DNA of 64,000 bases from an uncultured Actinomycetota bacterium (GTDB lineage Bacteria > Actinomycetota > Actinomycetes > CAVWCF01). The notes under the pieces are model-generated. The model was not told the DNA's origin, ran no database searches, and saw only the letters and a program-made list of their open reading frames with translations. Both the position numbers and the translations under genes were made by a program. Positions 53,214 through 59,534 of this stretch are shown piece after piece (the stretch's first letter is position 1; each line of letters opens with the position of its first letter). The stretch covers positions 1 through 64,000 of the forward strand of contig CAVWCF010000001.1 of assembly GCA_963753435.1 (NCBI GenBank), in the 5' to 3' direction.

Positions 53214-53416
53214 GCGGGGACGCTACCGGGGCCTGGCGTGGGGTCAGGCGATCGCAACGAGATGGCCAGAAAGCATCCGCGGCGGGTGCTCTTGCGCACA
53301 AATGTTGCGTTCGGCGCTCGAATGTTGCGCGAACGCGCTCGGATTTTGCGCAGATTCGCAAGGTCGGTGCGACACCTCTTGACGGGGAGGGGCTAGGGGC
53401 GCTTCACTACGGGTAT

Positions 53417-53432
53417 TCGAACAAGTGTTCGA
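53417..53432. promoter_or_regulatory. LexA (SOS) box
   Basis: TCGAAC-AAGT-GTTCGA, a perfect match to the actinobacterial consensus; the dyad extends to TTCGAAC...GTTCGAA. Confidence 0.93.
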
Positions 53433-53437
53433 ACTCT

Positions 53438-53593
53438 CCCGCCCCGGGTCGTGGTCCTCGACCCCCACGACCCGGGCGGGATTGCCGCCGGATCCCGAGG
53501 CAGACGTGGGGAAGCGTCTCCTCGGGATCGGCGGCAGGCGAGTCGTCCCTTCCCCGGCGGCGGACCTCCCACGCTGCCGAGGAGGAGGACTCG
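53438..53593 (+). ncRNA. Candidate structured 5' leader or small RNA with three hairpins
   Basis: Long stems at 53438-53480 and 53484-53535, short stem at 53542-53561; complementary loops GGGGAAG and CTTCCCC. Confidence 0.5.
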
Positions 53594-53919
53594 TGTCCCG
53601 TCGTTATGCCGAACCGATCGACGTCAAGCGGATCGACGTCAATGCCGCTGTTGACGTGGCCCCCACCTCCGCTGCCCCCGCCCCGGAGCAGTTCCTTTGG
53701 CGAGGTCGGCTGTATTCGGTACGCACCGTGCTGGCGCATTGGGTGGAGGGTCGGGCCTGGTGGCGGATGCGCGGCCCGGATGGACTGCCGGCCGTCGCCG
53801 AGGCGGCCGACCTGGAGGTCTGGCGGGTAGAAGCGCAAGCAGGCCGCAGCCGATCCAGCGGTGTCTACGACTTGGGCAATGACGGCGGCAGGTGGCGACT
53901 GCTGGGAATCCAGGACTGA
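53593..53919 (+). CDS. DUF6504-family small protein (ImuB C-terminal-domain-like)
   Basis: SD GGAGGAGG; F.WRGR.Y.V...LAHW....WW...WRVEA...GVYDL...WRL...D pattern. Confidence 0.78.
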   Translation: MSRRYAEPIDVKRIDVNAAVDVAPTSAAPAPEQFLWRGRLYSVRTVLAHWVEGRAWWRMRGPDGLPAVAEAADLEVWRVEAQAGRSRSSGVYDLGNDGGRWRLLGIQD

Positions 53920-54326
53920 TGGGTGACCAAAGAACAGGTGCCCGGGCGGTGGGTGACCGAACAACGGATGACCGGGAGATTAGGGACCAGGCACGACACG
54001 ACTTGGCCCGGGCAGTCGCACTGGAGCCACAGGAGCGCTACCGGGTGGCGCTGTCGGTTGCGGTCCGTGCCGCTGCCTTGGTGCTGGCCGAACGCACCCA
54101 TCCATCCACCATCCGGCGTGGCCCAACCGGGATCTGGGTGCTGTTGGCCCGGCATGCTCCCGCGTTGCGGGAGTGGTCGGACTTCTTTGTGCTGGCAGCG
54201 ACCCGCACTTTCGGGCCGCGGCAGCCGCCGGTGAGCGAGCGTGAGGCCGACGACTTGTTGCGAGACGCCGGGCGTTTCCTTGACGTCGCCCGGAACCTGT
54301 CCAGCCCACACCGATCTGCGATCTGA
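53919..54326 (+). CDS. SAV_6107-type HEPN-domain protein
   Basis: ERY..A...VRAAA.VLA.R, W.LL...AP.L.EW...F, READDLLRDA..FL; TGATG overlap with the upstream gene. Confidence 0.78.
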   Translation: MGDQRTGARAVGDRTTDDREIRDQARHDLARAVALEPQERYRVALSVAVRAAALVLAERTHPSTIRRGPTGIWVLLARHAPALREWSDFFVLAATRTFGPRQPPVSEREADDLLRDAGRFLDVARNLSSPHRSAI

Positions 54327-54331
54327 ACACC

Positions 54332-57300
54332 ATGTCCGCGGACTTCACCCATCTACATGTCTGTAGTGGGTACTCGTTGCGCTACGGCGCTTCTTCGCCG
54401 ATGCAGTTGGTCGCCGCGGCGGTTGAGCACGGCATGGATGCGCTGGCCCTGACCGACCGGGATGGCGCCTACGGCGCGGTTAAGTTCGCCAAGGCCTGCC
54501 TGGGCGCGGGTATAGCGCCGATCCTGGGTGCCGACTTGGCTATCGGGGCTGCGCCGACCGATGGGACTGCGCGAGCCGACGGGACTGCGGCGTCGGGCGC
54601 TGACGCAATCGCCGCGACGCGGCGCACTCCGGCCCACGGTGGCGCCCGCGTGGACCCACGCCATCGCCGCATCACCGTGCTGGCGCGTGGCGCAGCCGGG
54701 TGGGCGGCGCTTTGTCGAGTCATCTCCGATGCGCACCTGCGCGGACAACGCGGAAAACCTGTCACCGATCCGGCGATGTTGGCCGATCGCGCGTCCGCTG
54801 GTCAGCTGACGGTGCTGCTGGGGCCGTCCTCCGATGTCGGGGTAGCACTGGCCCGACGTCGACCGGATCTGGCTCGAGCCGCGGTTCAGCGTTGGCGTGG
54901 GCTGCTTCCGGATGGACAGTTGCTGCTGGAGGTCGTCTGCCATTTCGGTTCGACCGACGCCACCGACCCGTTGGTCTGTTCACTGCCGCAGGCAGCCCGG
55001 ATGCTCGGTTTCGCCGGTTCGGTAGGTCTGCCGGCGGTTCTGACCAACGCTGTCCGTTACGCCCAGCCCGACGACGCGATCACCGTGGACGTGTTGGACG
55101 CAGTCCGGCGCCTAGTACCGATGGATGCTCGGCACCTGGACCGCCCCAACGCGCAGGGGTGGCTGAAACCTGCTGCTGCCATGCACCGAATTGCCGCCGA
55201 ACTTGCCGGCCAGGTCAGTGTCGCCGGCGATACCGACCGGCAGGTTGCCCACCGACTCCTCGCCACCACCGCCGAACTGGCCGGTTCCTGCCGTCTGGAC
55301 CCGGTCACCGATCTCGGCATCGGCGGTGTCGCACTGCCGGAGTTGGCATCCATCCCCAGCATCGCTGGGGACCCCCGGGTGCGCCGCGCTGCAACGGGAG
55401 CGGGCGCCGCGGCTTGGGGGAGCACTGACATAAGAGAAGAGGCCCGCATCGGCGACGCGATCCTGCGCGAACGCTGCTTGACCGGACTGAACTCTCGGCA
55501 CTCCAGCGGCACCGGCGACGAAGTGCGCAGACGGTTGGACGAAGAACTGACCACCATCGCCGAACTCGGCTACGCCACTTACTTCCTGACCGTTGCTGAT
55601 GTGGTCGACCTGATCCGGGGCCGTGGGGTGCGGGTCGCCGCCCGGGGCTCGGGGGCGGGCAGCCTGGTCAACTACGCCTTGGGGGTTTCCGGGGTGGATC
55701 CGCTGGCGCACGGGTTGCTGATGGAACGGTTCCTGTCCCCACTGCGCCAGGCATTGCCAGACATCGACGTTGATGTGGAATCCGCTCGGCGGGAGGAGAT
55801 CTACACCGCCATCCTCGACCGTTACGGCGGATCCCGGTGTGCGTGCGTATCGATGATGGACACCTATCGGGTGCGGCATGCGGTCCGTGACGTTGGCGCC
55901 GCCCTTGGGCTGCCGCCCGGGGAGATAGACACCATCGCCAAGGCATTCCCGCACATCCGGGCCCGCGACGCCCGGGCGGCGATGCAGGACCTACCGGAAC
56001 TGCGCGCCGGGCTGGGTCGAGACGGCGGCGCCGAACGACTGGAGTTGCTGTTGAGTCTGGTCGAGCGCCTCGACGGACTGCCCCGCCACGTCGCAGTGCA
56101 TCCGTGTGGGGTGCTGCTGAGCAACTCCCGACTGCTGGATCGCACCCCGATGGAAGCAAGTTGGACCGGCTTCCCCATGAGTCAGTTCGACAAGGACGAT
56201 GTCGAGGATCTCGGTCTGCTCAAGCTCGACGTGCTGGGCATCCGGATGCAGTCGGCCATGGCGCACGCGGTCACCGAGATCGCCCGCGTCGACGGCGATG
56301 ACGTCGACTTGGACGTGGTGCCTTTGGACGACCCGGACACGTTCGCGCTGATCCAGTCCACCCACACTCTGGGTTGTTTCCAGATCGAAAGCCCCGGTCA
56401 ACGCGAACTCATTGGCAAGTTCGCGCCGGAGACGTTCGGTGACCTGATCACCGACATCTCGTTGTTCCGGCCCGGCCCGGTCAAGTCGGACATGGTCACC
56501 CCGTTCCTCAAAGCCCGACAGGGCTGGGCGCAGCCGGAGTACCTGCACCCGGACCTGCGTCCGGCGCTGGCGGAGACCTGTGGGGTCGTGGTCTTCCACG
56601 AACAAGTGCTGCGGGTCATCGCAACGATGACCGGATGCTCGTTGGCTCAGGCCGACGAGGCGCGGCGACACCTGGGCTCACCGGACACCGCCCCGGCGGT
56701 GCGGGAGTGGTTTCATCCCACCGCCATCCGCCACGGCTACGACCTCCCCACCGTGGAGAAGGTGTGGCAGGTGCTTGCCGCGTTCGCCTCCTTCGGGTTC
56801 TGCAAGGCGCACGCGGCGGCATTCGCGTTGCCGACCTATCAGTCCGCCTGGCTGAAGGCGCATCACCCGGCGGCGTTCCTGGCCGGGGTGTTGACCCATG
56901 ACCCAGGCATGTACCCCAAGCGGCTGATCCTTGACGACGCTCGCCAGATGGGTATCGCGATCCTTGGCCTGGACGTGAACGAATCCGATGCCACCTACCG
57001 TGTCGAACGCCTCAACCCGACCGATGAGCCGCCGCCGGAGATCCTGGGCGCCCCACCCCGCCGGTTGGCCACGCCGGGGGTGCCGGATGGGCGTGCCTAC
57101 GGGATCCGGCTGGCATTGCCGGAGCTGAAGGGCATCAACGATGAAGAGGTGCAACGGATCTTGGCCAACCGGCCGTACGCCACGTTGACCGACTTCTTCC
57201 ACCGGGCCCGGGTCAGCAGGCCGGTGCTGGAACGCCTGGTGCTGGCCGGCGCCTTCGACTCCTTGTACGGGCTGAACTCGCCGGCGCCGGTGCGCCGCCG

Positions 57301-58273
57301 CGGCAAGGTGACGCGGCGGGATCTGTTGCTGGCCGCCGCCGATCTGGACCGATGGGCGCGGCCGGCGGCAGGAGCGCGGGCCCGCCGAAGCCGAGTACGC
57401 CGCATCGACTCCGCTGCGGCTGAAGCGGACCCGGCCGTGCTGGCCGCGGAGCAGACTCAGGCGCCGCCGCCGGCGCGGGTGCCCGACGTGCAGTTGGCGT
57501 TGGACATTGGACCTGCCGAACCCGAGCCGGGCAGCGGTCTGCCGGAGATGACTGCGGCCGAACGGGTCCGCGCCGAACTCGATGTGCTCGGTCTGGACGC
57601 CAGCGGGCACGTCGTCGACTTCTACGCGCCGGTGCTGAACGCCATCGGAGTCACTCGTTCAGCGGATCTGCTCGGTCAACGATCCCAGGCAGAACTGTGG
57701 GTGGCCGGAGTGAAGGTCGCCACCCAGACTCCGCCGATCCGATCCGGGCGCCGGGTGGTGTTCCTGACGTTGGACGACGGCACCGGGCCGGTGGACGCGA
57801 CCTTCTTCGAAGACGCACAGGGCCCGTATGCGGCGACCTTGTTCCACTCCTGGTTGCTGCTGGTGCGTGGGCAGCTTCGACGTACCGGGCCCCGTGGGGT
57901 CAGCCTGCGGGCCACCGGTTGCTGGGAGCTGACCAGCATTTCGGCGGCCTATCGGGATGGTGGGGTCGAGGCGGTGCACGACCTGCTGGTGCCACCACCG
58001 GGTTGGGACCAAGCCGACGAAGCAGCGGTGGCTGCCGCAGCGGCAAGCCGGTCCACCCGACCGGTGCTGGTCCGAACGCCGGACGGCGCGAGCTTCGACC
58101 CGGCCGCTGGGCCGGCTGGCACTCGGGCCGGAGGCATGGGTCCGCGCCGGGTGCTGGTACACGTATCCGGTTTCAAACAGTCCCCGTACGCCGACGTGCG
58201 CCCGCCGGGCGAGGAGGTCACCAAGCCGCCACGAAAACTGTGGCACTCAAGTCCTGGCTCCTCCGGCGGATAG
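54332..58273 (+). CDS. dnaE2: Error-prone DNA polymerase III alpha subunit DnaE2
   Basis: PHP HLH.CSGYS/TDRD, RGSGAGS, PDIDVD, KLDVLG, FQIESPGQ, FGFCKAHA, OB fold FLTLDD; C-terminus LWHSSPGSSG; under a LexA box. Confidence 0.92.
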   Translation: MSADFTHLHVCSGYSLRYGASSPMQLVAAAVEHGMDALALTDRDGAYGAVKFAKACLGAGIAPILGADLAIGAAPTDGTARADGTAASGADAIAATRRTPAHGGARVDPRHRRITVLARGAAGWAALCRVISDAHLRGQRGKPVTDPAMLADRASAGQLTVLLGPSSDVGVALARRRPDLARAAVQRWRGLLPDGQLLLEVVCHFGSTDATDPLVCSLPQAARMLGFAGSVGLPAVLTNAVRYAQPDDAITVDVLDAVRRLVPMDARHLDRPNAQGWLKPAAAMHRIAAELAGQVSVAGDTDRQVAHRLLATTAELAGSCRLDPVTDLGIGGVALPELASIPSIAGDPRVRRAATGAGAAAWGSTDIREEARIGDAILRERCLTGLNSRHSSGTGDEVRRRLDEELTTIAELGYATYFLTVADVVDLIRGRGVRVAARGSGAGSLVNYALGVSGVDPLAHGLLMERFLSPLRQALPDIDVDVESARREEIYTAILDRYGGSRCACVSMMDTYRVRHAVRDVGAALGLPPGEIDTIAKAFPHIRARDARAAMQDLPELRAGLGRDGGAERLELLLSLVERLDGLPRHVAVHPCGVLLSNSRLLDRTPMEASWTGFPMSQFDKDDVEDLGLLKLDVLGIRMQSAMAHAVTEIARVDGDDVDLDVVPLDDPDTFALIQSTHTLGCFQIESPGQRELIGKFAPETFGDLITDISLFRPGPVKSDMVTPFLKARQGWAQPEYLHPDLRPALAETCGVVVFHEQVLRVIATMTGCSLAQADEARRHLGSPDTAPAVREWFHPTAIRHGYDLPTVEKVWQVLAAFASFGFCKAHAAAFALPTYQSAWLKAHHPAAFLAGVLTHDPGMYPKRLILDDARQMGIAILGLDVNESDATYRVERLNPTDEPPPEILGAPPRRLATPGVPDGRAYGIRLALPELKGINDEEVQRILANRPYATLTDFFHRARVSRPVLERLVLAGAFDSLYGLNSPAPVRRRGKVTRRDLLLAAADLDRWARPAAGARARRSRVRRIDSAAAEADPAVLAAEQTQAPPPARVPDVQLALDIGPAEPEPGSGLPEMTAAERVRAELDVLGLDASGHVVDFYAPVLNAIGVTRSADLLGQRSQAELWVAGVKVATQTPPIRSGRRVVFLTLDDGTGPVDATFFEDAQGPYAATLFHSWLLLVRGQLRRTGPRGVSLRATGCWELTSISAAYRDGGVEAVHDLLVPPPGWDQADEAAVAAAAASRSTRPVLVRTPDGASFDPAAGPAGTRAGGMGPRRVLVHVSGFKQSPYADVRPPGEEVTKPPRKLWHSSPGSSGG

Positions 58274-58292
58274 CGCCGAAGATGGCAACAAG

Positions 58293-59534
58293 ATGAGCCG
58301 CAAGCAGTTGCGCCGCAATGATTCAGTTGAACCTGCGCCCACGACAGTCGATGACACCGGGTGCACCGTTCTGCACGTGGATATGGACGCCTTCTACGCG
58401 TCGGTGTCCCTGCTGGAGCACCCTGAACTCATCGGCCAACCAGTCATCGTCGGCGGTGGCGGCACCCGCGGCGTGGTGCTGAGCGCCACCTACGAAGCCC
58501 GCAGATTCGGAGTGCACTCGGCAATGCCGATGACCCGGGCGCGACGCGTCTGCCCGACGGCGGTGATCCTGGAGCCGGACCATTCCCGCTATGCCGCGGT
58601 CAGCGACTCGGTCATGCAGATATTTGCGTCCATCACGCCGCGCTACGAACCGCTCAGCCTGGATGAAGCGTTCCTCGACGTTGCCGGTGCCCGACGCCGT
58701 GTCGGTCCGCCCAGGCACATCGCCGAGCTGATCCGGGCCCGCGTGGCCGACGAGCAGGGCATCACCTGCTCCGTCGGTGTGGCGTCGACGAAGTTCGTCG
58801 CCAAACTGGCGTCCACCCGGGCCAAGCCTGATGGCCTCATCGTCGTGCCGGCCGACAGCGTCGTGCAGTTCCTGCACCCGTTGCCGGTCGCCGCGCTTTG
58901 GGGGGTGGGGGAGAAGACCGAGGAAGTGCTGACCCGGCTGGGGCTACGAACCGTCGGCGACCTCGCGCGCACACCCGTGGCCACGCTGCAGCGGGCGCTC
59001 GGCCCCGCGGCCGGCAGCCACCTGTCCGACCTGGCCTGGGGGCGTGATCCCAGGTCGGTTACGCCGAACGAGCCGGACAAAAGCATCGGCGCTGAGGAGA
59101 CGTTCAGCCGGGACACCGACGACCCTGAGGTCCTGCGCCGGGAGTTCCTGCGCCTGACCGAACGTGTCGCGGCCCGGCTACGTGCGGGCGGCTGGGTCGG
59201 TAGAACGGTCAGCATCAAGGTGCGGTTCGCTGACTTCTCCACGATCACTCGGGCCAAGACGCTGCGCGAGCCGACGGACGTGGCCCAACTGATCTACCCC
59301 GTGGTCCGGGCCTTGTATGACGGTCTGGGTCTGCAGCGGGCCCGGGTGCGCCTGGTTGGGGTTCGCATGGAGGGGCTCCTGCCGGTGGATTCCCACGCCG
59401 AGCAGATGATCTTGGACGCCCCGGACTCGGGATGGCGGGAAGCCGAGCAGGCCGCTGACCGGGCGGCGGCGCGGTTCGGGTCGGGCGCGGTGCGACCGGC
59501 TCGGCTGATCGATCCGCGCCAGGATCAGGCCTGA
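58293..59534 (+). CDS. dinB: Y-family DNA polymerase IV with intact catalytic residues
   Basis: HVDMDAFYASV, YEAR, SLDEAFLD, LWGVG, RLVGV; clamp motif QMILD. Confidence 0.94.
   Translation: MSRKQLRRNDSVEPAPTTVDDTGCTVLHVDMDAFYASVSLLEHPELIGQPVIVGGGGTRGVVLSATYEARRFGVHSAMPMTRARRVCPTAVILEPDHSRYAAVSDSVMQIFASITPRYEPLSLDEAFLDVAGARRRVGPPRHIAELIRARVADEQGITCSVGVASTKFVAKLASTRAKPDGLIVVPADSVVQFLHPLPVAALWGVGEKTEEVLTRLGLRTVGDLARTPVATLQRALGPAAGSHLSDLAWGRDPRSVTPNEPDKSIGAEETFSRDTDDPEVLRREFLRLTERVAARLRAGGWVGRTVSIKVRFADFSTITRAKTLREPTDVAQLIYPVVRALYDGLGLQRARVRLVGVRMEGLLPVDSHAEQMILDAPDSGWREAEQAADRAAARFGSGAVRPARLIDPRQDQA

Follow-up and report, generated by a model that had tools for sequence, protein, structure and literature searches.

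The SOS operon and its probable promoter

The window, a 64,000-nucleotide stretch of DNA from an uncultured Actinomycetota bacterium, carries a LexA (SOS) box, TCGAAC-N4-GTTCGA (53417..53432, no strand assigned), which was recognized by sequence and spans a presumed transcription start. The Gram-positive SOS box has been given as GAAC-N4-RTTY (PMC3273824), and of 155 distinct regions upstream of DUF6504, 146 have a LexA box by a pattern of our own. A likely -35 element, TTGACG (53379..53384, forward strand), was assigned by sequence, with an indistinct -10 element in the window copy; TTGAC(G) stands at the same distance from the LexA box in most of the homologues displayed, and a consensus promoter scan found none. 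The promoters of L008, L176, L180, L182 and L188 have TGTCGG-N10-TA-N3-T, which we take to be a PafBC-type damage promoter, 5' of the LexA box; the window copy does not.

Behind the box lie four genes, all on the forward strand. The first (53593..53919, GTG start) encodes a 108-residue DUF6504 protein (Pfam PF20114, E 8e-19) with a predicted beta-rich fold, for which comparison with known structures reached a best Z of 5.2 and gave no clear match and no functional lead. It is followed by a SAV_6107-like HEPN gene (53892..54326; Pfam PF18726, E 6e-18), whose true start is uncertain, by a paralogue of DNA polymerase III alpha (DnaE; 54332..58273, assigned by family search), and by an open reading frame for DNA polymerase IV (DinB; 57957..59534), whose true start is probably more downstream. 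The DnaE paralogue adjoins DUF6504/HEPN in most genomes that carry it. A preliminary description of this DNA had spoken of an error-prone polymerase operon; DnaE and DinB are indeed both present, but that the DnaE is error-prone is something we infer, its score lying under the cut-offs of both the error-prone and the replicative families. A divergent YbaK-type tRNA-editing gene (PF04073; 52728-53213, reverse strand) is also found beside several homologous loci.

Of the RNA runs, X1-X4 and X7 yield low-depth contigs over the leader, and those in X3 and X5 span the leader into the gene. Coverage is scattered and DNA carry-over is possible, so that the contigs are evidence neither of transcription nor of a start site, and do not point to a small RNA of its own.

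Predicted structure of the window leader

The predicted folding energy of the 181-nt leader region is -119.6 kcal/mol (z = -7.02); none of 200 shuffled sequences was as stable. H1 (53437..53481, forward strand; model R1) is a 17-bp hairpin with the conserved loop (U/A/C)CUCGACCC, for which no match was found among published motifs, and H2 (53482..53537, forward strand) is a hairpin of about 23 bp with the loop UGGGGAAG at 53507-53514. Both fold as they had been drawn in the preliminary description, with most pairs at a probability of 0.8-1.0, and H2 ends about 45 nt 5' of the Shine-Dalgarno (SD) sequence. A contig of depth 3 from RNA run X2 has G in place of A at position 53498; this would keep the H2 pair as G-U and may be an error.

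H3 (53542..53561, forward strand) consists of GUCGUC, the loop CCUUCCCC (53548-53555) and GGCGGC, and is predicted to be transient. The proposed complementarity between GGGGAAG (53508-53514) in the H2 loop and CUUCCCC (53549-53555) in the H3 loop holds at seven of seven pairs, and the ability of CGAGUCGUCC (53539-53548) to pair with 53584-53593 was likewise borne out at 9 of 10 positions. The latter helix had been described as an alternative structure, but folding reverses this order: an anti-SD arm (53538..53594, forward strand), in which 53538-53562 pairs with 53570-53594 and buries the SD AGGAGG (53583-53588) together with the start codon, is the predicted ground state of the full-length RNA, with pairs at 0.99, while H3 has a population of about 0.00. 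Opening the window ribosome binding site (RBS) would cost 23.9 kcal/mol, and 15.6 kcal/mol with both loops held free.

Conservation and covariation of the leader modules

A search of 251 genomes from the class detected DUF6504 in 132 of them and a HEPN-family gene in 197. Like the counts for the LexA box, the dnaE neighbourhood, model matches and the mraW motif, these tallies include the unpublished genomes G030, G032 or G043; one further tally also takes in G036 and G008, and nothing else claimed here depends on these genomes. The leader set leaves out leaders shorter than 40 nt as well as two loci whose genomes are unpublished; the remaining 133 leaders were reduced to 113 non-redundant ones. 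Four modules recur in these, nearly always in the order H0-H1-H2-H3: H0, which has the loop YUCGCGG and is missing from the window, in 26 leaders, H1 in 83, H2 in 51 and H3 in 54, with none in 8. The stems of H1 and H2 (medians of 21 and 24 bp) use all six pair types; these recurring hairpins set fixed loops on freely varying stems. Another conserved hairpin loop, CCAGCGUAC, takes the place of H0/H1 before H2 in family f48 (L362-L377). Nocardioides-like leaders with H1 only (L054-L059, L115, L138) have GGGGUC(GA), a complement of the H1 loop, 3' of the stem, with three copies in L058; complements of this type occur in 10 of 44 H1 leaders without H2 and 7 of 39 with H2. A partner loop for H1 or H0 was sought in G000, the window's genome, and none was convincing.

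The alignment of H2 and H3 (60 sequences) has 87.8% of its cells paired, compared with 61.8% after shuffling and 34-46% after sliding, although it was fitted with a model and is biased towards its own structure; double changes occur at 21 of 24 pairs. Within it, the H3 stem is 89.5% paired, with double changes at 3 of 5 pairs. A strand-neutral count of G-T against A-C on the sense strand gave 74:11 for H1, 40:3 for H2 and 14:3 for H0, and an excess of this kind points to a folded, single-stranded sense strand. The claim of a structured SOS leader RNA is upheld among the 113 leaders, where conserved, covarying, sense-strand structure stands behind the LexA box, conservation and covariation in homologous leaders having been the check that the preliminary description proposed.

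A model of H2 and H3 together matched 31 places in 30 of 150 genomes, all at the SOS operon except for one duplicate in G045. The modules are also found 5' of the HEPN gene in genomes where DUF6504 was not found, and a second LexA-boxed promoter with H1 stands right before dnaE in L214 and L217 (G104:C7:68684, G085:C77:3065); in these two genomes the DUF6504 leader is only 13 nt long, and in G104 DUF6504 lies 8 kb upstream of the boxed dnaE. A tie of the modules to one gene was rejected, as DUF6504, HEPN or dnaE can each come first, and from the arrangement of the sequences they appear to belong to the SOS transcript rather than to any single gene. A coding or leader-peptide role was also rejected, as leaders range from 5 to more than 280 nt and in-frame stops occur in 34 of 83 long ones. 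A type III toxin-antitoxin system with a HEPN nuclease was considered and rejected: a published table lists the SAV_6107-like HEPN family without a catalytic motif (PMC3710099), HEPN genes occur without modules, and modules occur in G010 and G054, in which no HEPN-family gene was detected. Among 20 off-locus H1 matches inspected, 18 had no box and appeared to be chance matches in coding sequence. In the four large genomes of family f28 (L170-L173), neither a LexA box nor any leader module lies within 1.5 kb of the HEPN gene.

Searches of Rfam, which had also been suggested, gave no match for the window leader (E <= 10) or for 12 homologous loci (E <= 1). The leader is a real and widespread structured SOS RNA outside Rfam. 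That it is no named motif was correct for the leader as a whole but not for its parts, since two of its loops equal those of published motifs; judged by its sequence, the leader would combine two undescribed modules (H0 and H1) with two loops known from orphan motifs. No publication on the leader or on the H2/H3 loop pairing was found in a search that left most subscription journals and the supplements of later motif surveys uncovered, and a prior description is possible; further related papers are PMC9380542 and PMC5055667.

The H2 and H3 loops as a pair

Among the 113 leaders, whose kin are not independent, 41 have both H2 and H3, 10 H2 alone, 13 H3 alone and 49 neither; one of those counted as H3 alone (L112) carries a variant H2. 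The spacing from H2 to H3 has a median of 34 nt (sd 5), and the distance from H3 to the start has an sd of 15. Across the seven loop-loop pairs, all 361 cells keep their pairing; the variation seen consists of four wobble changes and a single double change. The complementary loops noticed in the window thus proved to co-occur at fixed spacing and to keep their complementarity. The double change, GAGGAAG/CUUCCUC in G099, was not significant (28 of 500 shuffles scored as high, with an H3 search pattern that admitted only C/U variants). Since the mraW and excisionase loops of G099 are canonical, the change is private to the SOS leader. In one clade both loops are shortened by one pair, the H2 loop being AGGGAAG and the H3 loop one C shorter. 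A spare base lies 5' of the 7-mer in the H2 and H3 loops alike, so the loops are not a single DNA site read both ways.

When a leader has H3 but no H2, an H2 is often present at another place in the genome. The loops are split between loci in family f3. H3 stands alone before DUF6504, and where the HEPN gene is elsewhere in the genome, H2 follows a LexA-like box at the HEPN gene (7 of 7 genomes). Of six genomes examined in which no HEPN-family gene was detected, five (G051, G097, G150, G181, G243) have a gene-less LexA-boxed H2 unit, and in the sixth, G116, there was neither a boxed H2 match nor a called H3 stem. These units come from three genera of the one family. In them, 174-465 nt precede the point where a convergent bldD-like gene ends, and the loci have no small ORF in common; from such sequence features they are candidates for SOS small RNAs. 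Gene-less H2 units lie between a GNAT gene and the convergent bldD-like gene in L379, L380, L381, L382 and L390 (near position 1500). In G115, H3 is present and the H2 search gave no match.

H2 also occurs at other genes. A model of H2 alone matched in 54 of 150 genomes, and of 13 off-locus matches inspected, 6 were before nrdJ, 3 looked intergenic and had no box, and 4 appeared to be chance; Rfam gave no match for the relocated H2 copies, in a search in which only the mraW locus matched. In genus g91, H2 lies between nrdR and nrdJ in all three genomes, 1.3 kb behind LexA boxes, and genus g76 has five nrdJ-linked H2 copies together with SOS leaders that have no H3 (3 loci read). H2-type hairpins between nrdR and nrdJ, which encodes a B12-dependent ribonucleotide reductase, are seen in families f11 and f51 (L392, L393, L388, L395, L398-L402). 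A search for a displaced H3 in five H2-only genomes gave 5 matches, compared with 6 for a control pattern, none of them near a box. Metagenome variants of loop 3 were rejected as chance, with a LexA box or DUF6504 at 0 of 120 loci.

Predicted folding and occlusion of the ribosome binding site

In prefixes ending just 3' of H3, the hairpin is predicted at a probability above 0.5 in 29 of 40 homologues, and in 38 of the 40 the H3 loop stays free; in the window's own prefix, H3 reaches only 0.13, with its loop 0.86 free. Of 51 full leaders, 34 are predicted to have the H3 loop paired to the RBS zone and 17 are not, and H3 persists in 3. The mean cost of opening the RBS is 15.0 kcal/mol with H3 and 11.0 kcal/mol without, although leaders with H3 are also longer. 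Freeing both loops would cost a mean of 7.4 kcal/mol, compared with -10.6 kcal/mol for the duplex, a net negative balance in 30 of 40 leaders, and holding both free lowers RBS opening from 14.5 to 10.6 kcal/mol (lower in 28 of 40). One part of the translational switch suggested at the outset is supported, the predicted position of the H3 loop over the RBS zone. RBS complementarity to CUUCCCC, however, is no higher in H3 leaders than in leaders without H3 (p = 0.31), so that the anti-SD pairing may be incidental; the H3 region slightly favours its own RBS (33 of 52).

A proposed mechanism and its alternatives

The reading we favour, tentatively and somewhat short of an even chance, is that the H2 loop captures the H3 loop of another RNA molecule and relieves SD occlusion of the first gene. 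As modelled by folding, H3 would form as the RNA emerges and its loop would then refold onto the RBS; GGGGAAG of an H2 on a neighbouring transcript, on a separate H2-bearing SOS RNA or on an H2 fragment cut from the long stem would capture CUUCCCC in trans and keep it off the SD region, and the first gene would be translated. Strong SOS induction would then be needed for translation. H1 probably serves as a module of its own, for protein binding or for stabilisation. Trans capture is supported by the unbroken loop helix, the tight H2-H3 spacing, the co-occurrence of the modules and the f3 loops at separate loci. Against it stand the single, non-significant double change, the ten leaders that have H2 without H3, the failure to find a displaced H3 in five such genomes, the RBS regions with no added complementarity to CUUCCCC, the 17 H3 loops not predicted on the RBS, G115 with its H3 and no H2 match, the origin of the gene-less units in one family, and the H2-type loops that precede an excisionase-like gene, napA or nrdJ, in some genomes without any H3 in the SOS leader. 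These last loops are fitted equally well by a protein site, a strong rival that we hold to be less likely than trans capture: each hairpin would be an independent site for an RNA-binding protein, with NGGGGAAG hairpins marking a regulon (the excisionase-like gene, napA, nrdJ and the SOS operon), gene-less LexA units acting as CsrB-like decoys, CUUCCCC hairpins binding another factor, and the complementarity incidental or secondary. Modules that occur alone and in many combinations, almost invariant loops, the same loop directly before the SD of unrelated genes, and an H1 that accompanies whichever of DUF6504, HEPN or dnaE comes first all speak for such sites. However, six genomes with canonical H2 (91-99% complete) gave no match for the excisionase-family protein, which would be the obvious candidate, CsrA was not found in G000 (98% complete), and the DUF6504 fold gave no lead. 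Such sites would also leave unexplained why the spacing between H2 and H3 is fixed, why G099 has a paired change and why both loops are shortened together in one clade.

The preliminary description had placed the kiss, or pseudoknot, of H2 and H3 within one molecule, in competition with the anti-SD helix, and the adjacency and fixed spacing of the two hairpins, the availability of H3 in nascent RNA and the private compensatory pair in G099 speak for this version. We consider it distinctly unlikely, and its geometry looks unfavourable: with a median H2 stem of 23 bp, an H3 stem of 5 bp and a linker of 2.5 nt, the median loop offset is about 50 A for a reach of about 21 A, and the kiss is feasible in 9 of 40 leaders by a crude estimate (2.8 A per pair, 6 A per base). 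Moreover, 28 of 40 H2 stems have no large asymmetric bulge, and both loops are conserved even when split between loci. Equally improbable is a role of the long stems in stability or processing, in which 5' protection or RNase III sites would determine how long the SOS message lasts and the loops would tune nuclease recognition. RNase III prefers about two helical turns, the H1 and H2 stems of 21-24 bp come near that length, and H1 begins almost at the presumed 5' end, but the invariant complementary loops and the gene-less LexA-controlled H2 unit would go unexplained. That the hairpins act as DNA, as cruciforms or palindromic protein sites, seems very improbable. The 2007 paper on the excisionase motif raised such a DNA element for that motif (PMC1950547), and stems of the mraW motif show no sense-strand bias (A-C 22, G-T 11, in a tally that includes L474 at a wrong offset); the leader copies, however, all lie in one orientation behind the box, their loop registers are not mirror images, and the sense-strand excess of G-T seen in H0, H1 and H2 recurs in the excisionase copies (10:2).

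Relation to known RNA motifs

The H2 loop recalls the 'excisionase' motif, a single actinobacterial hairpin described by Weinberg et al. in 2007, whose loop core in the supplement consensus, RGGGGAAG, equals that of H2 (PMC1950547). The loop G-N-GGGGAAG-C was found before excisionase-family genes in 16 of 30 windows, and no Rfam match was seen for the motif. It differs from H2 in its stem, which is 10-15 bp compared with about 23 bp, and in that H2 lies in a LexA-boxed multi-module leader before DUF6504/HEPN, or in a gene-less unit, and not beside the SD of an excisionase-family gene as the motif does. G000 has H2-type hairpins before DUF3263/napA (L409:about 594; G000:C1:1629693, forward strand) and before an excisionase-family HTH_17 gene (L408:about 1037; G000:C1:1207336, reverse strand), whose orthologue in M. 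tuberculosis we presume to be Rv0500A. That protein binds promoter DNA (PMC6375644).

The 7-nt loop core of H3, CUUCCCC, equals the terminal loop of mraW RNA (Rfam RF01746; PMC4607514; PMC2864571), but the latter is a hairpin of about 100 nt before rsmH, whereas H3 has a stem of 4-6 bp before a DUF6504 or HEPN gene, and H3 leaders gave no score against RF01746 (window E <= 10; 12 homologous loci E <= 1). The mraW motif was found in 121 of 150 genomes, and in G000 at L410 (C1:88240-88351; 47.7 bits, cut-off 50). Its own action as RNA is only putative, since the C. diphtheriae copy is located upstream of the start site of mraW (PMC5784534) and the stems of the motif have no sense bias.

The loops of these two orphan motifs are complementary and stand side by side in one leader. 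An extension of trans capture that we regard as unlikely is that actinomycetes share an RNA-loop address code, in which GGGGAAG hairpins would kiss CUUCCCC hairpins in trans, the former being those of the SOS leader, of gene-less LexA-induced small RNAs and of excisionase-like, napA and nrdJ leaders, the latter H3 and the mraW motif. If so, DNA damage would turn on polymerase translation cooperatively and signal division genes by RNA alone, and the two orphan motifs (2007, 2010) would share one function, the mraW motif heading the cell-wall and division cluster. Loop swaps make the function of both motifs directly testable. Pairing in trans, if true, would set a post-transcriptional threshold on damage-induced polymerases; the leader itself adds an uncatalogued, widespread structured RNA to the actinobacterial SOS response, 5' of a DnaE paralogue and DinB.

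Among other actinobacterial RNAs, 6C RNA (RF01066) is connected with the C. glutamicum SOS response (PMC5014011). It shares C-rich loops with the leader, but the leader lacks six-C runs in both loops and has no Rfam match, and G000 has a separate 6C-like locus (L210, G000:C1:1500874-1500947; 44.8 bits, cut-off 47). ColE1 RNA I / RNA II and CopA/CopT are systems of kissing-loop control and, like the leader, have fully complementary 7-nt loops on stable stems; unlike them, the leader has no opposite-strand antisense transcript, its complementarity is confined to the loops, and it is chromosomal and under LexA. ROSE-type RNA thermometers are also built of several hairpins, the last of which buries the SD, but the leader described here differs from them in its conserved complementary loops, its SOS context and its very stable, G+C-rich SD helix.
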